Made by a program: the position numbers and the translations under genes
The notes under the pieces: generated by a model
Seen by the model: the letters and a program-made list of their open reading frames with translations, nothing else
The model's database searches: none
What the model was told of the DNA's origin: nothing
From: Minisyncoccota bacterium
Lineage (GTDB): Bacteria; Patescibacteriota; Minisyncoccia; Phycocordibacterales; CAIZLB01
DNA: 64,000 bases
Direction of reading: 5' to 3'
NCBI GenBank assembly: GCA_021734945.1
Contig: JAIPIA010000003.1
Location: 156,895 to 220,894, forward strand
Shown: positions 7,689 to 14,851 of the stretch, piece after piece
Numbering within the stretch: the first letter of the stretch is position 1
Layout: every line of letters begins with the position of its first letter

Positions 7689-10600
7689 TTATATCTTTGT
7701 GACTTCGAGCAACGGTTCTTCTACCTCCACTTCAACATACTCCACTTTTTCAGCTTGAATTGGTTTCTTGAGCATTTCTTCATTTTTCTTCAAAATATCA
7801 AGAGTTGAGGATGAAGCGGAAACTGTAAGGACAATAAAATCACTTGGTATAAGGCCCGCATTCTTTCGAGCTTCCTGGACCCCACGAATAGCATCTCGCA
7901 CGATTCCCTCCTCTTTGAGTTCTACTGTAAGGTTCGTATCAAGAGCGAGTTCTGAGCCTTTTTTAACTTCTTTTACATTAAGTTCTTCTTTTATGATCTG
8001 TAGAAAATCTTCAGACAGTTCTATACCCGTTTCACTACTTGCCTCCTCATGAGTATACACAAATGAAGCGAGGGGTTGTCGAACTTTTATACCTGACTTT
8101 GCTCGTATGGCGAGACCAGTCTCTACAAGTTTTCGAGCAACTTTCATTGCATCAATCAAAGCATGATCAACAACTGGTAACGTTGGCCAGTCTGCCAAAT
8201 GAACACTCTCAGGCATAAGTACCGCTGAAGTAGAACTCACCCGAGCAATTTCATTTCGAATACTCTGGTACATATGCTCAGCCATAAATGGCACAAATGG
8301 AGCAATCAATTTTGATAAGGTGAGAAGTGCAAATCGAGTTGTCTGCATTGCTTGCTCTTTATCTTTTGCATCATCACCTTTGAATCTATCTCGTGAACGT
8401 CGAAGGTACCACGTAGATAAATCGTCTACAATATCTGCAATAGGTCGAGCAGCTTTATCAATCTGATATGTATCAAGACCTTTTTCTATATCGTTTTTAA
8501 GCGAAGAAAGACGAGCGACAATCCACTTATCAAGAACATTATCTGAGTGAGGTACCGAATCAGGAGTTAGTCCCTCTGATACTGGAACATGTTCCGCATA
8601 TAGCACATAAAATGAATATACATTTTCGAGTCTATTGAAAATCTTTTTATTGATTTCATCGAGAGTTTTTTCTGAAAAGAGAACTTCTTCTGAATGAGTC
8701 ACTGATGATGAAGCAATAAAATATCTAAGTGGGTCTACACCATATTTGTCAAAAGTTGGCTCCATCGGTGGATAGTTCTTAAGACTCTTAGACATCTTTC
8801 TGCCGTCTTCAGCCAACATCAAACCATTCACGATTACGTTTTTGTAAGGACTCTTACCGAACAAACCAACACCTAGCACCATAAGTGAATAAAACCATCC
8901 ACGAGTCTGATCTAACCCCTCTGCAATAAAGTCTGCGGGAAAAATAGGACTATTATTTTCTTCGAAAAGATCTTTATTCTCAAACGGATAATGAGCTTGT
9001 GCAAACGGCATCGCGCCAGAGTCATACCACACATCAAAAACCTCAGGCACTCGAACCATAGTTTCCTTTTCACCTGATTTTGCCTTTGTTCCATCAAGAA
9101 GTAGCAAACCCTCTTCAACCTCACTCTCCCATGTTACTCGATCTATATACGGACGATGCAAATCAAGCTCCATAGATTCATTATGTGGAAGTTGTTTAAA
9201 ATCCATTTCATGGAGTGAAGCGTTTGGGTCAGAATAATCTCTCCAACCAGACCGGAGGAGATCTCGACATGTTTGACCGTTAATCGTGTTAACCATAAGA
9301 CGTAGTGGTAATCCATGAGTAACAACAAGGATATTTTCGTCTTCATGTTTACTGTCTAGGTCATAGAGAAATTCTGCAGATCGCTTTTTAACATCTTCTA
9401 CAGACTCACCGTTTGTTCCTGGATTCTTCTTGTATACAGTATCGTGACGAGTTTTGAAGTATCCAGTTTCTGCTCTACCTGACCATTTACCACCTTCAAA
9501 ATCTCCACCTCCAACTTCTCGGAGACGAGTATCAAATACTATTTGAGTTTTATCTAGACCAAGAGCGTTAGCTACGTGTTCAGCAGTTTCTCGAGTTCGT
9601 CTGAAATCAGATGAATAGATTTTTGTAATCTTTTTTCCAGTTTCCTTTTGTCTAGCCAAAAGCTTTTGTGCTGCTTCTTCTACTTGTCCACGACCATGCA
9701 TTGTGAGACCATACTTTTCTCTTCCCGCTTCACTTGGATCTGAATTTATTACATCAAGCGTGTTTGACTCTGCTTCACCGTGACGCATAAGAGTAATATT
9801 GTTTCCTCTACTTTCAATTTTAGACTTGAGGTCTGAAACAGAACCAATAAATTCAACCTTACCCGTTTTTTGTCCTCGCCATATTGGAAGTGGAGCTCCC
9901 CAATATCTACTTCGTGAAATTGCCCAGTCACGAACATTTTCAATCCATTTACCAAATCGCCCTTCCCCTACTTCTTTTGGAATCCAATTTACTTTATTGT
10001 TTTCGGCAATCAATGTATCTTTCATATCTGTAACTCGAACAAACCATGACGATGTCGCATAGTTTAGAAGTGGAGTATCACATCGCCAGCAGTGTGGATA
10101 TGAGTGGACAAGTTTTTCTTTTGCAAAAAGAAGTGGTGAATTTGTTGAATTTTTTAACTGTGAAAGAAGCTTAATTACTTCAATATCTGTGAGTTGATGA
10201 TCACCTTTTGGTTTTGCATAAAGACCTGAAAGCGAGCCATTTCCTTCTTTTATTTTTCCATCTGGACCAACATGAATAATAACTGGCAAATTCATTTCTA
10301 CAGAAAGTTTGTAGTCATCGTCACCGAACGCAGGTGCAATATGTACGATACCTGTACCATCTTCTGCTGTTACAAAATCAGCACATTGAACCTTCCAAGC
10401 ATTAGCTCGCTTTGTTTCTTGGTTAGCAGAAAGTGTTCCTGTATTTGCATAAAAATCAAAAGGAGGCACATAGGAAATTCCTTCAAGCTCTGTCCCTGCT
10501 ACTTCTTTTAGAACAGTAGCTTCCTGAGGCAGAATATTTTTTTCTTTAAGTTTTGGAATTAAATCTGTAGCAACCCACAATTTAACAGAAATATCTTTTT

Positions 10601-11450
10601 GTGTAGTTTCAAGGAGTGAATATTTTAATTCTGGGTTTACAGCAAGCGCCGTATTACCTGGAAGTGTCCATGGCGTCGTTGTCCACGCTAAAAACGATTC
10701 ACCTTTTGGCGTACCCACAGCGCTGTCTGTCAGTGCCGTTCCTTCTGTGTCTCTTTTATTCAACAATTCAAATAGCACATACGCAGAAATATCTGGAATA
10801 TCTTTATACCCTTGTCCTACTTCAAAGTTCGAAAGTGTAGTTTGACATCGAGGACAAAATGGCATTACTTTGAAGGCTTCATACACAAAACCTTTATCCT
10901 GCAGGGTTTTGAATGACCACCAGACAGACTCTGTATAACTTGAATCCATAGTATGGTAATCATTTTCCATATCAACCCATCGTCCTGCCCTCCTTACAAG
11001 TCGCTTCCAATCTATGTCATAACGAAACACACTGTCTTTTGCCGCTTTATTAAATTTATCAATACCATATTCTTCAATGGCTTTTTTATCTGTAAGACCA
11101 AGCTCTTTCTCTATGAGATTCTCAATTGGAAGACCGTGACAATCCCAACCCCACTTTCGCGGAACATTATAGCCCTGCATTGTCTTATATCGAGGAATAA
11201 CATCCTTAATAGTTGAAGGAATCATGTGACCGAAATGTGGAAGACCAGTAGCGTACGGTGGCCCATCATAAAAGACGAAATTACCCTTAGGTGAGTCTTT
11301 CTCTAAACTTTTTTGAAATATATCGTGCTCCTGCCAAAAAGCCAAAACAGCTTCTTCTCGCAGGGCAGATTTTGTCTTGAGTGCATCGCCCGCATGTACC
11401 TCTGTCTGGGGCTTTGGATTGAATTCTGCCATGTGATTTTGCGAAATCAC
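7689..11450 (-). CDS. ileS: isoleucine--tRNA ligase, type 2, with a ~210-aa histidine phosphatase (PGAM/SixA-like) domain inserted in the catalytic core (nt ~9171-9809)
   Basis: Type-2 HIGH region GPPYATGLPHFGH and editing-domain motif WTTTPWTLPGN. Further IleRS anchors are WAISRSRYWGAPLPIW, HRPYID and KMSKS. Between IGS and HRPYID sits LMRHGEAESN ... SDFRRTRETAEHVA ... VVTHGLPLRL, where Thermus type-2 IleRS has only ~25 residues. Confidence 0.9.
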   Translation of the reverse strand: MISQNHMAEFNPKPQTEVHAGDALKTKSALREEAVLAFWQEHDIFQKSLEKDSPKGNFVFYDGPPYATGLPHFGHMIPSTIKDVIPRYKTMQGYNVPRKWGWDCHGLPIENLIEKELGLTDKKAIEEYGIDKFNKAAKDSVFRYDIDWKRLVRRAGRWVDMENDYHTMDSSYTESVWWSFKTLQDKGFVYEAFKVMPFCPRCQTTLSNFEVGQGYKDIPDISAYVLFELLNKRDTEGTALTDSAVGTPKGESFLAWTTTPWTLPGNTALAVNPELKYSLLETTQKDISVKLWVATDLIPKLKEKNILPQEATVLKEVAGTELEGISYVPPFDFYANTGTLSANQETKRANAWKVQCADFVTAEDGTGIVHIAPAFGDDDYKLSVEMNLPVIIHVGPDGKIKEGNGSLSGLYAKPKGDHQLTDIEVIKLLSQLKNSTNSPLLFAKEKLVHSYPHCWRCDTPLLNYATSSWFVRVTDMKDTLIAENNKVNWIPKEVGEGRFGKWIENVRDWAISRSRYWGAPLPIWRGQKTGKVEFIGSVSDLKSKIESRGNNITLMRHGEAESNTLDVINSDPSEAGREKYGLTMHGRGQVEEAAQKLLARQKETGKKITKIYSSDFRRTRETAEHVANALGLDKTQIVFDTRLREVGGGDFEGGKWSGRAETGYFKTRHDTVYKKNPGTNGESVEDVKKRSAEFLYDLDSKHEDENILVVTHGLPLRLMVNTINGQTCRDLLRSGWRDYSDPNASLHEMDFKQLPHNESMELDLHRPYIDRVTWESEVEEGLLLLDGTKAKSGEKETMVRVPEVFDVWYDSGAMPFAQAHYPFENKDLFEENNSPIFPADFIAEGLDQTRGWFYSLMVLGVGLFGKSPYKNVIVNGLMLAEDGRKMSKSLKNYPPMEPTFDKYGVDPLRYFIASSSVTHSEEVLFSEKTLDEINKKIFNRLENVYSFYVLYAEHVPVSEGLTPDSVPHSDNVLDKWIVARLSSLKNDIEKGLDTYQIDKAARPIADIVDDLSTWYLRRSRDRFKGDDAKDKEQAMQTTRFALLTLSKLIAPFVPFMAEHMYQSIRNEIARVSSTSAVLMPESVHLADWPTLPVVDHALIDAMKVARKLVETGLAIRAKSGIKVRQPLASFVYTHEEASSETGIELSEDFLQIIKEELNVKEVKKGSELALDTNLTVELKEEGIVRDAIRGVQEARKNAGLIPSDFIVLTVSASSSTLDILKKNEEMLKKPIQAEKVEYVEVEVEEPLLEVTKI

Positions 11451-11654
11451 ACCGAGCGGTCGTCATCTCGGCTCGGCGCTTTTTCTTTATTGTAATTATT
11501 ATGTGTAAATTTTGAACTATATTCGCACACCGTATAAAAAATGTTGCCATTTTTGATTCATTTTGATGCGTTTTTATAGTTTTTTAAATAGTAGCACTTT
11601 GGTCAAAAGTGGCAACTTAGTGAGACTTGTTTCCATTAATTTTCCTATCTATTC

Positions 11655-11698
11655 CAAAGAAAAAACCCCGTCAGTTTCTCAAGCTGACATTGGGGGGT
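11655..11698 (-). terminator. intrinsic terminator on minus strand (CCCC-GUCAG stem followed by U6)
   Basis: Minus strand reads CCCCCCAAUGUCAGCUUGAGAAACUGACGGGGUUUUUUCUUUGG. Confidence 0.6.
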
Positions 11699-11699
11699 T

Positions 11700-11940
11700 A
11701 AGGGTTTATGACACCAAATAAATGATTTTACCTTCGATTAGCCTCGCGAGTGCAGACGACGTCGTGTATTGAAACGATAATTGCAGGCAGTGAGAAGTAT
11801 TAAGCGTCGGACCTTTAAGGCTCCGCACCTGCAACCTCCACGACCTGATGGTTTCATGCAACGACGTTCTGTACCTGTTGAGCTAGTTTCGTTTGCCATA
11901 ATGGCTTTGTTGTTGGTTTCCTTGTTTCTGTGCAAATGAG
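11700..11940 (-). ncRNA. GC-rich long imperfect hairpin RNA candidate (6S- or SRP-like shape; class unresolved)
   Basis: A 5' segment GUACAGAACGUCGUUGCAUGAAAC pairs with a 3' segment GUUUCAAUACACGACGUCGUCUGCAC across ~110 nt; an inner 7-bp helix UUGCAGG/CCUGCAA is also present. The island is ~55% GC, lies directly 5' of the terminator above, and its only ORF (11738-11935) has GC-artefact composition. Confidence 0.3.
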
Positions 11941-12164
11941 CCTCTCACATCTCCCAGAGGAAAATGTGTGACTCATAGAAATCATGATGCCAACAAAGCT
12001 CATATTCGTCAATAGACTCCTACATTGTGTACATGATCTTATTTTACAAAATCACCATAACAACTCCAGATAGGATTACTAAGCAGGCCAGACTTCTCCG
12101 AACAAGTTCTTTCTCTTTAAAGAGATTCCCCCCTATGACAGTAGTGATTACAGCATTTATTTGC

Positions 12165-12920
12165 TTAACAGCATTTAGGAGCCCTGCCTCTACTAGATTT
12201 ACAGCAAACAATATGTGTGACACGATGCGAGATTATAAAAACTACGTTCGCCCAAAAGGACTTTTGCGTCAGTAAAGCCCCATCAATCAACTTCTTCTTC
12301 GCCACAGTAGGCTTTCTGAATGCATTTTTAATAATATCGAATGCAAACATATTTATACATATACCAACTTGAATCATGAGCAAGAAGAGTAATGGATCAA
12401 CACCTCTGTGATGAATAACATATCTATCGCCGACTGCACTGAGTCCGAAGAAGACTAAACCAATAATAAGTATCAGATAAAGATGTGATTTTCCATCACT
12501 TTGAACTACCTTGTGTTTATATTCCAATATAAAAAGTCCAAAAGATGATAGAACTATTCCAAATATCTGCGATTGCGTAAAAAATTCACCAATAAATATA
12601 CTCCCAAATAACGCAACAATAATAGGTGTTGTTGCAAAGAGTGTACTAGACTCACTTATATCTATTTTTTGAACGACATAAGCAATGGCTAATGCATCAA
12701 CCACAGAAATTAATGATAAGCCGTACACAATCCAAAAAGTCTCCCCTGTTATATTAAAATCTTTAACAAAATAAAGAAGTGGTATGGAACAGATTGCTAT
12801 TATAAAACTGATGCCAGATATATAATCTGAGGCATTCTCTTTCACTAACAATTCTTTTTCAGAAATAGTAGCTAGCGATTTAAAAAGTGCAGCAATGCAA
12901 GCAAGTGTAATCCACGTCAT
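12165..12920 (-). CDS. EamA/DMT-family membrane transporter (about 10 TM helices)
   Basis: Two repeated hydrophobic 5-helix halves; no catalytic motifs; the odd Cys-rich C-terminus may be read-through. Confidence 0.55.
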   Translation of the reverse strand: MTWITLACIAALFKSLATISEKELLVKENASDYISGISFIIAICSIPLLYFVKDFNITGETFWIVYGLSLISVVDALAIAYVVQKIDISESSTLFATTPIIVALFGSIFIGEFFTQSQIFGIVLSSFGLFILEYKHKVVQSDGKSHLYLILIIGLVFFGLSAVGDRYVIHHRGVDPLLFLLMIQVGICINMFAFDIIKNAFRKPTVAKKKLIDGALLTQKSFWANVVFIISHRVTHIVCCKSSRGRAPKCC

Positions 12921-12945: not shown

Positions 12946-13830
12946 CTAAATACAATCGTTGATATACTTTGTCCAACCAGCCATGCATTTAGTCGAGGTC
13001 GCCCACAAATCTTTCATTGGAGCATAAGGTACTGTAAAAACACCGAACGTTGTTGTTGTATTTGTACCTCCATAGCAATAAGAACCAAAAGCTGTTCCAT
13101 CAGCACATCCTTTGTATGTATATGGAGTTGATATATTACAAGTTGTTATAGTAGTAGCAGACAGAGTTGAGTCATTTAATATTCCTACAACTGCTTTAGG
13201 ATCAGTACATTCTGATGCGTCTTTTGGATTGTAAGCAAGCTTTTCACAATAAAATTTAAGACCTGGACCACCGTTGTTACGTGGACCCTCCCATGATGTA
13301 CAGCCAAATTCAAATGGTGAAACGCCGTGGTTTCTTCCAATCCCTTTATCATAACAAGCAACCAAAGGATCATATGATTTTCCAAAAGCATCACAGTATC
13401 CACTAACTGTTTTCCAATATCCACAAAAAGTTTTTCCATTTAAGTTTATTCTACTTGAACCATTTGGACACTGCAGCCTTGTAGCATTTTTTCTTGCCTG
13501 AACATAATCTTGCCAACTTGCATTACCATCAGCATCAGATACAAGAACTTTCCCTGCTCCGGGATTTCCACCTGTTATTTGAACCTTATCTTGCAACGAT
13601 GTACTTCCTGTTACAAGGAGACCCCCTACACCAAGTGTTCCATTCTTAATCTGACTTACATTTGAGATATTTAGAGGTGCAGCTGAGTTATTATCTGGAG
13701 CAGTTCCAGTTGGCTCACTCCACGCATATACTACGACACCAGAAATAGTGAAAAATAGAAAAGCTGACACTAACGCTGTAATGAAAGTTTCCTTTTTCAC
13801 AACTTGATTATATTTTTTAAAAAATGACAT
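12946..13830 (-). CDS. secreted/membrane-anchored cysteine-rich protein, paralog A of a tandem pair
   Basis: N-terminal TM segment, then AAPLNISNVSQIKNGTLGVGGLLVTG...GKVLVSDADGNASWQ, then a C-terminal domain with ~12 Cys (CGYW...NHGVSPFEFGCTSWEGPRNNGGPG...YC). Confidence 0.6.
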   Translation of the reverse strand: MSFFKKYNQVVKKETFITALVSAFLFFTISGVVVYAWSEPTGTAPDNNSAAPLNISNVSQIKNGTLGVGGLLVTGSTSLQDKVQITGGNPGAGKVLVSDADGNASWQDYVQARKNATRLQCPNGSSRINLNGKTFCGYWKTVSGYCDAFGKSYDPLVACYDKGIGRNHGVSPFEFGCTSWEGPRNNGGPGLKFYCEKLAYNPKDASECTDPKAVVGILNDSTLSATTITTCNISTPYTYKGCADGTAFGSYCYGGTNTTTTFGVFTVPYAPMKDLWATSTKCMAGWTKYINDCI

Positions 13831-13861
13831 AGATTTTATTTATTTGACCCAACGCCATTTA

Positions 13862-14491
13862 TTAATTTGTTGGAGCAGGACCCGCCTTACAATACATCAT
13901 TCCTCCAGGACCACCACCATTTCCTGGTCCCTCCCATGCTGTGCAACCTGTAGCAGTAGGATTTACACCGTGATTTTTACCTACACCCATATCTTCGCAA
14001 TAAACTAAAGTATCTGTTCCATTACAATTATATGTTCCTCCACCAATAGATTTTGAGTACCCACAAAATGTCTGCCCGTTAATACTCATTTGTACTGAAG
14101 TTCCAGGACACTGTGCTTGTGCAGTTACATTACAAGTTGGTACAGGTGGTGGATACTGCCACGCTGCATTACCCTGAGCATCTGACATAAGTATCTTACC
14201 TACATCCTGGGTACCGTCTACGATTTTTACTGTTCCATTAAAGACTGACTGTCCAAAAACCCCAAGACCATTTACACCAAGAACTCCAGTCTTTTGCTGT
14301 GTTGCAGAACCTACGTTTATAGGAGCAGCGACGTTTCCAGCAGGAGGAGTCACTCCAGCACCAGGAGCAACCCATGCACTTGCAGCACTTGAAAAACCAA
14401 TTAAAACAACAGCAATCACGAGTGCGTATATAAATTGTGTAATTTGTTCTTTCATATTTTTTATATTATTGGATCTATTTAATATTTCCAC
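13862..14491 (-). CDS. secreted/membrane-anchored cysteine-rich protein, paralog B
   Basis: Same module order as 12946-13830: AAPINVGSATQQKTGVLGVNGLGVFG...GKILMSDAQGNAAWQ...CGYS...NHGVNPTATGCTAWEGPGNGGGPG...YC. Confidence 0.6.
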   Translation of the reverse strand: MEILNRSNNIKNMKEQITQFIYALVIAVVLIGFSSAASAWVAPGAGVTPPAGNVAAPINVGSATQQKTGVLGVNGLGVFGQSVFNGTVKIVDGTQDVGKILMSDAQGNAAWQYPPPVPTCNVTAQAQCPGTSVQMSINGQTFCGYSKSIGGGTYNCNGTDTLVYCEDMGVGKNHGVNPTATGCTAWEGPGNGGGPGGMMYCKAGPAPTN

Positions 14492-14813
14492 CTAGTTCTT
14501 TCATAATCTGCATTTTCTTAGCTTCTGAAATTTTTTGATTCGCTTTAATTATACTTAACATCTTATCCTTTTGCACATCTGAAATGCTACTTTGTGATTG
14601 TTGGAGCGCTGGCGAATCTATTGATTCAATAGGTTTTGGAGGGTTTCCTAAATTATCCAATGGATCAATATCCTGATTTTCTAGTTGGCTAGGTAATAAA
14701 AAATCTGTAATAACACCGTATGAATAATAAAGACTAAAAACAATTGCAAAAACAAGAACAACATACAATGATGTTTTCTTCGCGAACTTGTACGCGTCAA
14801 AATTATGTCTCAT
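14475..14813 (-). CDS. small single-pass membrane protein, hypothetical
   Basis: 112 aa, one TM helix (LYVVLVFAIVFSLYYSY); overlaps the start of the downstream paralog by 17 nt, suggesting co-translation. Confidence 0.4.
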   Translation of the reverse strand: MRHNFDAYKFAKKTSLYVVLVFAIVFSLYYSYGVITDFLLPSQLENQDIDPLDNLGNPPKPIESIDSPALQQSQSSISDVQKDKMLSIIKANQKISEAKKMQIMKELGGNIK

Positions 14814-14851
14814 ATAGAGACTAATAATATCACAAGACTATCAGTTTATAA

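Follow-up and report, generated by a model that had tools for sequence, protein, structure and literature searches.

What do two neighbouring cysteine-rich proteins, encoded side by side among housekeeping genes, do for a patescibacterial cell? The question is raised by a 64,000-nucleotide stretch of contig JAIPIA010000003.1 (positions 156,895 to 220,894; assembly GCA_021734945.1) from a Minisyncoccota bacterium, which we call the window and in which two tandem paralogs, the short p2 and the long p1, follow a gene for a small membrane protein. To our knowledge, the molecules with which most Patescibacteria outside the cultivated Saccharibacteria recognize and hold other cells are unknown. We give about even chances to the reading that p1 and p2 are Sec-exported, probably trimeric surface fibres built as a stalk and a head, with the small protein tethering or assembling the base and the head binding an external ligand. 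The three genes are, in order of transcription:

14475 to 14813, minus strand: small membrane protein gene (112 amino acids, aa), an open reading frame (ORF) with one hydrophobic segment.
13862 to 14455, minus strand: short paralog p2 (197 aa; NCBI MCF7865725.1, 'hypothetical protein'), starting at ATG 14455.
12946 to 13830, minus strand: long paralog p1 (294 aa; NCBI locus tag K9M11_04445, 'hypothetical protein'), an ORF.

A sequence-only reading of the window had proposed that two ORFs here encode tandem paralogs with the same module order. Both ORFs are present, on the minus strand, and their products align by BLASTP, under composition-adjusted statistics, over 207 aa, 41% of the positions being identical and 55% positive (expect value, E, 2e-38). 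This is not low-complexity similarity; the paralogy and the common module order are real and far beyond chance. All the motifs singled out in that reading (AAP[LI]N, Q.K.G.LGV, GK[VI]L.SDA.GNA.WQ, CGY, NHGV.P, GC..WEGP.N.GGPG and YC) recur in the pairwise alignment and in an alignment of 19 sequences, and tblastn found no further paralog in the window. The cysteine count had to be revised: instead of a '10-12-Cys domain', the shared head has six Cys. In total p1 has 12 and p2 has 7, six of those in p1 lying in a 99-aa C-terminal extension that is missing from p2.

The start of p2 also had to be moved. The longest-ORF list runs it from 14491 to 13862, 209 aa counted from a GTG. We place the start at ATG 14455, because the short orthologs all begin with M-K-E/D-x-I/V-x-Q-F, which corresponds to this ATG in the window, because the extensions upstream of the ATG are unrelated between lineages or absent, and because the database copy of p2 (MCF7865725.1) is 197 aa long. 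At one related locus (L009) the extension ahead of the ATG has an unrelated sequence, and at another (L001) the short-paralog ATG lies 10 nt past the stop of the small gene, with no in-frame start upstream. In the window the small gene's stop codon (14475-14477) leaves a 19-nt gap before ATG 14455. The 17-nt overlap described earlier between the small gene and its neighbour holds only for the GTG at 14491; it and the translational coupling deduced from it are therefore artefacts of longest-ORF calling, and coupling loses its support. That a 112-aa membrane protein is encoded directly upstream was correct. At the head of this gene, a terminator-like hairpin (GTCTCTATATGAGAC, 14807-14821, minus strand) followed by a T-rich tract contains its ATG; the hairpin could mark the end of the rhodanese transcript or could cover the small gene's start codon.

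The three genes travel together. In every examined locus with a family member, the order is a small transmembrane protein, a paralog of ~195-211 aa and a paralog of ~209-297 aa, and the trio was found in three different genomic neighbourhoods. Seven loci (L001-L005, L009-L010) place the small protein (118-120 aa), the short form (195-211 aa) and the long form (290-297 aa) between argS and rhodanese genes on one side and ileS-recO on the other; L007 has the same trio with different flanks. In more distant Patescibacteria (L006, L008) a 109-110-aa small membrane protein, at L008 named as from Taylorbacteria, is followed by Cys-head proteins of 196 and 209 aa and preceded by an extra gene of 103-110 aa that encodes only the N-terminal motifs N1 and N2 described below; a histidine kinase gene adjoins. 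Long-form orthologs (57-80% identity) and short-form orthologs lie on the same contigs. A profile of the small protein retrieved ~10 clusters in 5.8 billion proteins, on contigs partly shared with the Cys proteins, and every small-protein context examined has two Cys-head paralogs directly downstream. The three genes are one conserved cassette of a Paceibacteria/Patescibacteria bacterium.

Are the paralogs exported? Both open with a segment of signal-peptide type:

14375 to 14455, minus strand: p2 signal peptide, aa 1-27, ending SAASA↓W, read from the sequence.
13723 to 13830, minus strand: p1 signal peptide, aa 1-36, ending VVYA↓W, likewise read from the sequence.

Each has n, h and c regions with small residues at positions -1 and -3. 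Among 78 family members, the residue before the conserved Trp is Ala in 58 and Gly, Ser or Thr in 13, and position -3 is A, V, I, S or L in 61. In an AlphaFold 2 (AF2) model of p2 this region (aa 2-26) is a helix. The N-terminus of p1 and p2 therefore fits a signal-peptidase-I site, at which cleavage would be expected. Neither protein has an LPXTG motif or an N-terminal lipobox Cys.

The prepilin-peptidase site contemplated in the sequence-only reading is absent from p1 and p2: a regular-expression scan for the class III signal G↓[FM]-[TS]-L-[IL]-E found none in the first 45 residues of p1, p2 or the third protein, p3. This bears on the idea that the paralogs belong to a type IV pilus or some other filament, as minor pilins or as tip adhesins, which we consider very improbable. 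They do share with the type IV pilins and tip adhesins of Patescibacteria a predicted extracellular location, an N-terminal hydrophobic helix and candidacy as host-contact molecules in episymbionts; cultivated Saccharibacteria reportedly bind their hosts by means of type IV pili (bioRxiv 10.1101/2024.11.25.624915), and two distant carriers of the Cys core discussed below (P0130, P0123) have prepilin-like N-termini. However, p1 and p2 lack both the G↓F-T/S-L-I/L-E motif and LPXTG, their conserved region follows the hydrophobic segment instead of preceding it, genes for pilus machinery are absent from the surroundings, and no pilus genes adjoin the cassette in any examined locus. The proteins match no well-known family such as ordinary pilins and have no prepilin, LPXTG or lipobox motif; the 'pilus-tip-like' part of the earlier adhesin proposal is not supported.

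Directly behind the signal, both paralogs carry a base motif (N1) and a neck hairpin (N2):

14156 to 14374, minus strand: N1 and N2 of p2, aa 28-100, from profile matches and the AF2 model.
13510 to 13722, minus strand: N1 and N2 of p1, aa 37-107, from the alignment and profile matches.

The N1 consensus is W-x-x-P-(T/S)-x-x-P-P-x-G-N-x-A-A-P-I-N-...-Q-x-K-x-G-x-L-G-V-x-G-L and that of N2 V-K-I-x-D-G-T-x-x-x-G-K-(I/V)-L-x-S-D-A-x-G-N-A-x-W-Q, which in p2 reads V-K-I-x-D-G-T...G-K-I-L-M-S-D-A-Q-G-N-A-A-W-Q. N1/N2 profiles match 112 proteins. N1 stands directly after the signal in almost all its occurrences (>75 proteins), those with a named source being mostly from Patescibacteria; N2 is separable from N1, is repeated two or three times in some proteins and also occurs in proteins of Bacteroidota. 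Because carriers of N1 and/or N2 end in C-terminal domains as varied as H_lectin, Lcl_C, Peptidase_S74, Phage_depo_C, He_PIG and Gly_rich_2, the N-terminal part of p1 and p2 is, by sequence comparison, a shared stalk on which the heads are swapped. In the AF2 model of p2, aa 88-100 form a beta-hairpin and aa 27-87 have no regular structure; within it N1 is modelled at a predicted local distance difference test (pLDDT) score of 58-83, as expected if N1 folds only in an oligomer.

The earlier comparison of SDAxGNAxWQ with phage tail fibres proved right only in an indirect way. The hairpin, as V-K-I-x-D-G-T-x-G-x-G-K-V-L-T-S-D-x-x-G-x-A-x-W, does occur in cellular tail-fibre-like proteins ending in Peptidase_S74 or Phage_depo_C, but p2 had no tblastn match in 50,697 phage records (INPHARED). 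Could the genes be remnants of phage or tailocin tail fibres? The shared hairpin and weak matches to tail-fibre models in BFVD would suit this, and yet it is extremely improbable: there are no phage genes nearby, the housekeeping synteny is stable across related genomes, and p1 and p2 carry Sec signal peptides. Unlike S74 tail fibres and tailspikes, they have no PF13884 domain in Pfam, no phage context and no detectable phage similarity. No head relative was confirmed in IMG/VR either, a weak negative from a peptide-pattern scan.

The closest functional analogue we would name is the family of MAT (mosaic adhesive trimer) fibres of Bdellovibrio bacteriovorus (Caulton et al. 2024, PMC10769870). 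In these fibres a signal peptide leads into a conserved N-terminal domain close to the cell surface, the stalk is trimeric, and the adhesive tips are swapped, lectin folds and new beta-sandwiches being among them. In both systems the signal peptide is followed at once by a conserved N-terminal module that presumably lies at the surface of the producer, part of the fibre is akin to the S74-type fibres of phages, C-terminal tips are exchangeable, here at the level of the wider N1/N2 family, and the producer would live by attachment to other bacteria. Two relatives of the window proteins (P0026, P0029) even carry, directly before the N2 hairpin, a 'GxGT..P...L' loop motif of the sort described for the MAT fibres. 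Yet p1 and p2 are not MAT proteins, because they match neither NF053851 (Bdello_MAT_N, a ~130-aa beta-rich N-terminal domain) at E up to 1 nor, as far as their sequence can be read, the capping-loop motif V-G-G/N-pi-x-x-P-x-x-x-L, which P0026 and P0029 have. They are also five times shorter (197 and 294 aa against ~1,000 aa), lack beta-helix repeats, use another base motif and always come as two paralogs accompanied by a small membrane protein, and their producer is presumed to be a monoderm cell of the candidate phyla radiation (CPR). NF053851 does match the unrelated N-terminus of one protein in our set, P0096.

What the stalk carries in p1 and p2 is the least familiar part of the system:

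13889 to 14110, minus strand: six-Cys all-beta head of p2, aa 116-189, from the AF2 model and the head profile A3.
13246 to 13470, minus strand: six-Cys head of p1, aa 121-195, homologous to the p2 head by BLASTP and alignment.
12949 to 13245, minus strand: p1-specific C-terminal extension, aa 196-294, found only in orthologs of ~290 aa.

The head spans ~75 aa, with its six Cys spaced by 14, 9-12, 8-12, 17 and 17 residues. Within it lies a more widely shared core of ~55 aa, C-x-G-x-D-...-C-x-D-x-G-x-G-(R/K)-N-H-G-...-N-G-C-x-A-W-E-G-x-x-N-x-G-...-C, to which the clade of the window adds an N-terminal C-P-x-G-S-S...C-G-Y hairpin. Over 57 domains the positions D, G, G, N, H, C, E, G, N and G of the core are near-invariant, and the Cys complement differs among members (CC...CC variants, for example). 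The p1 extension has six further Cys and ends in a C-x-A-G-W-x-K-Y-x-x-x-C hairpin; its AF2 pLDDT is low (32-69).

This head is rare. Scanned exhaustively with HMMER and profile A3, 1.84 billion cluster representatives yielded 34 clusters at E <=1e-3. Pfam, NCBIfam, PHROGs and PADLOC gave no match to the head, the hmmscan searches of Pfam-A and NCBIfam being read at E up to 1; p1 as a whole matches no Pfam-A family and p2 only Big_3_5, weakly and far below the cut-off (E 0.023). PDB sequence searches with a single protein, the head profile and a whole-protein profile gave nothing meaningful. Scans of the GTDB species representatives and IMG/VR returned pattern matches of which none was confirmed, a weak negative with one or two peptide patterns per scan. 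A protein search with a 55-aa profile of the core alone let 57 candidates through its word filter and gave a single, uninformative hit. Carriers with a named source include members of Candidatus Woesearchaeota (P0118, P0121), Taylorbacteria (P0109) and a metagenome-assembled genome labelled 'Pseudomonadota' (P0130). Three small secreted proteins with Pro-rich linkers (P0110, P0113, P0116) contain two Cys cores in tandem; this tandem-copy core has six Cys and begins C-D-D-P-x-x-G-G-x-P-G-A-R-L-V-x-C.

In three unrelated architectures the Cys core is membrane-distal: it lies C-terminal to the N1/N2 stalk in the window proteins, at the C-terminus of the pilin-like P0130 and P0123, and right after the signal peptide of archaeal/Woesearchaeota proteins with a C-terminal transmembrane anchor (P0121, P0122, P0125). 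This placement, together with the head-swapped relatives, favours the adhesin or surface-fibre option of the sequence-only reading. It also speaks against a purely structural role, in which p1 and p2 would be spacers or struts of the wall or S-layer and the Cys head a stabilizing knob. We regard such a role as unlikely, although the conserved syntenic position among housekeeping genes would agree with it, the conserved glycines could be structural turns, and the head, with 57-80% identity among long-paralog orthologs, is strongly conserved, unlike the rapid diversification often seen in receptor-binding tips. Against it, polar residues (D, N-H, E, N) that stay invariant in a small domain rich in disulfides point more to a binding site, and in relatives the same stalk bears recognized lectin heads.

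Does the head resemble any solved fold? A first AF2 model, of p1 with 19 sequences, reached a pLDDT of 54.7 and gave no Foldseek match below E 1.4. The p2 model, from a 74-row alignment, has a mean pLDDT of 85.5, and its head (aa 121-192) is all-beta at pLDDT 95-97. Searched against the PDB with Foldseek, it brought up as top group resistin (1rfx/1rgx), RELM-beta (1rh7) and the C-terminal modules of PCSK9, with E 0.099-2.3, probability 0.5-0.98 and a root-mean-square deviation (rmsd) of 3.4-3.9 A over 59-73 columns; these matches are not significant. The common ground would be a small disulfide-rich beta-sandwich. Each PCSK9 module has six Cys, the number in the shared head, in three disulfides paired 1-6, 2-5 and 3-4, and the three modules together resemble the resistin homotrimer (PMC9113161). 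Resistin and RELM-beta form trimers that are joined into hexamers through an extra N-terminal Cys, the resistin head standing on an N-terminal stalk that oligomerizes (PMC9869618). An odd Cys is found in p2 likewise: Cys108 (14132-14134, minus strand; 'PVPTCN'), a seventh, unpaired Cys in the neck just before the head, kept in P0010-P0014 and P0016 and missing from P0017, P0018 and the long paralog; by analogy with resistin hexamers it is a candidate for an inter-chain disulfide.

There are also differences. Neither p1 nor p2 matches the Resistin family of Pfam (hmmscan, E up to 1), their stalk is not an alpha-helical coiled coil, and we know of no counterpart in resistin of the DxGxGxNH and WEGxxNxG motifs. 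The RELM signature C-X11-C-X8-C-X-C-X3-C-X10-C-X-C-X-C-X9-CC-X3-6-end (PMC9869618) is absent from p1 and p2, as is its Cys spacing. Because this signature is missing and the fold match is not significant, we take the likeness to resistin and to the Cys/His-rich domain (CHRD) of PCSK9 as a lead, from the model, on shape and possible three-fold packing, not as family membership.

A resistin- or RELM-like head would also suit a different function, that of diffusible effectors acting on bacteria or on host membranes, with the small protein as an immunity partner protecting the producer. The best fold matches are to resistin and RELM-beta, of which recombinant RELM-beta reportedly permeabilizes bacterial membranes (PMC13647132), and a small single-transmembrane gene directly upstream is typical of immunity genes, the window's even showing a weak Imm6 match (E 0.029). 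We nevertheless hold this to be quite unlikely. Beyond the insignificant fold match and the absent RELM signature, the N-terminal two-fifths of p1 and p2 are common to lectin-headed and S74-headed fibre-like proteins, there is no exporter, C39 peptidase, double-glycine leader or PADLOC match, and the neighbours (argS, rhodanese, EamA, ileS and recO) are housekeeping genes. A match of p1 aa 16-110 to the JUQZ-1/BLB8 bacteriocin family NF053514 scored 13 bits where the cut-off is 40 (E 0.085), was shared by 0 of 10 relatives having the same modules and was set aside as chance; JUQZ-1 is described as a Brevibacillus bacteriocin (PMC11747845).

The small protein itself bears on the choice between immunity partner and fibre partner. 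It has a basic N-terminus, a transmembrane segment at ~aa 16-38 (hydrophobic maximum aa 18-36), a Pro/acidic linker and a Lys/Glu-rich C-terminal helix KISEAKKMQIMKEL, and is predicted from this layout to be of type II topology (N-in, C-out) with an ectodomain of ~74 aa. A likeness of the C-terminal helix to LTXXQ/Spy-type motifs was set aside, Pfam giving no such match. The protein belongs to no Pfam, NCBIfam, PHROG or PADLOC family: its matches to Imm6 (14.7 bits against a cut-off of 25) and BRR2_plug were rejected as far under the cut-offs, and for the cassette proteins so were weak V-ATPase K and PHROG matches (E >=0.06 for the latter). Elsewhere in Patescibacteria, single-transmembrane proteins of 115-122 aa precede N1 genes with unrelated heads, at loci L011 (585-2808), where small gene and N1 gene alternate twice, and L013 (2103-3349), where the small gene stands before one for an H-lectin-headed protein. 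These have the same layout and a terminal helix '[ST]xx[ED][KR]xx[IM][ILM]'. Homology to the window's small protein did not reach significance (BLASTP E 0.08; hhalign probability 24%), architecture and gene position being all they have in common.

Because small proteins of similar architecture precede N1 proteins with unrelated heads, the small protein appears to be linked to the stalk and not to the Cys head. This is suggestive of anchoring or assembly, which it fits better than immunity, and it weakens the bacteriocin or toxin option of the sequence-only reading. A small membrane partner with an N1 fibre may be a general two-gene module in other Patescibacteria.

How, then, would such a surface fibre work? 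As we picture it, p1 and p2 would leave the cell by the Sec route, and signal peptidase I would cut them directly ahead of the invariant Trp. N1 and the tail-fibre-type N2 would build a short stalk, probably a trimer by analogy with the tail-fibre-like relatives, either homomeric or mixed from p1 and p2. The small type-II protein would probably keep its base at the cell surface, either through the ectodomain or by helping in assembly. The stalk would display the disulfide-locked beta-sandwich head at its distal end, where an invariant patch of polar residues and glycines, formed by D-x-G-x-G-x-N-H and C-x-x-W-E-G-x-x-N-x-G, may bind an external ligand, most plausibly a glycan or protein on the surface of another cell. 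With its second Cys-rich module at the C-terminus, p1 could give the pair two tip specificities or one composite tip.

Several points weigh against this surface-fibre reading. Around the cassette lie only housekeeping genes, with nothing related to adhesion close by. No sequence match to a solved structure or curated family was found in PDB, Pfam, NCBIfam or PHROG, and no fold match is significant: the best PDB hit has E 0.099, with template-modelling scores on the target of 0.41-0.46 for resistin/RELM-beta, and BFVD matches are weak (E of at least 7e-3, rmsd 15-20 A). N1 is plainly unstructured in the monomer model, and the oligomeric state is something we infer. The similarity between the window's small protein and those of L011 and L013 is not significant, and two further N1 loci (L012, L014) have no small protein called directly upstream. 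A hydrophobic N-terminus retained as an uncleaved anchor could make the anchoring role of the small protein unnecessary.

A bolder extension, possible but doubtful, is that the Cys core, of ~55-75 aa, is an undescribed prokaryotic counterpart of the resistin/PCSK9-CHRD fold, with which ultra-small cells that depend on a host, Patescibacteria as well as Woesearchaeota/DPANN, make contact at the fibre or protein tip. The Patescibacteria would then mount it on a lineage-specific secreted mini-fibre of N1, N2 and a dedicated membrane-tethered partner, with heads swapped as in phage receptor-binding proteins. Modular secreted fibres with exchangeable binding tips are already known as a kind of system; the novelty lies in the head domain, in N1 as base motif and in the constant grouping of the two paralogs with a small membrane partner, none of which we found in the libraries or literature searched. 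The cassette offers small, expressible candidates for cell-cell contact in an uncultured CPR lineage, namely a stalk system with interchangeable heads, one of which is in no catalogued family, is extremely rare and also sits at the tips of DPANN archaeal surface proteins. If this head binds a defined surface ligand, it would provide a handle for predicting or fishing out the organisms with which uncultured CPR lineages associate, and the known binding scaffolds would gain a new, small and disulfide-rich one; should it be a structural knob and no more, the gain would be a modest one in annotation.

The cassette is embedded in a co-directional series of housekeeping genes: argS, UPF0176/rhodanese, the cassette, an EamA-like gene, ileS and recO. 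The EamA-like ORF (12165-12920, minus strand) is missing from the syntenic loci of relatives. It has one EamA repeat only (aa 2-132) and an odd Cys/Arg-rich tail, and a 59-aa ORF in another frame (12044-12223) resembles its missing C-terminal helices, which suggests a frameshift, pseudogene or assembly error near 12200-12225. Between ileS and this gene, ~700 bp (11451-12164) hold no convincing ORF and no tRNA, RNA families not having been searched for. The isoleucyl-tRNA synthetase that follows (7689-11450, minus strand; 1253 aa) contains a His_Phos_1 insert (a PGAM-like histidine-phosphatase domain) at aa 552-752, within the class-I catalytic core (Pfam E 6.9e-31), and the same insertion is annotated in the isoleucyl-tRNA synthetases of L001, L003, L005, L009 and L010.

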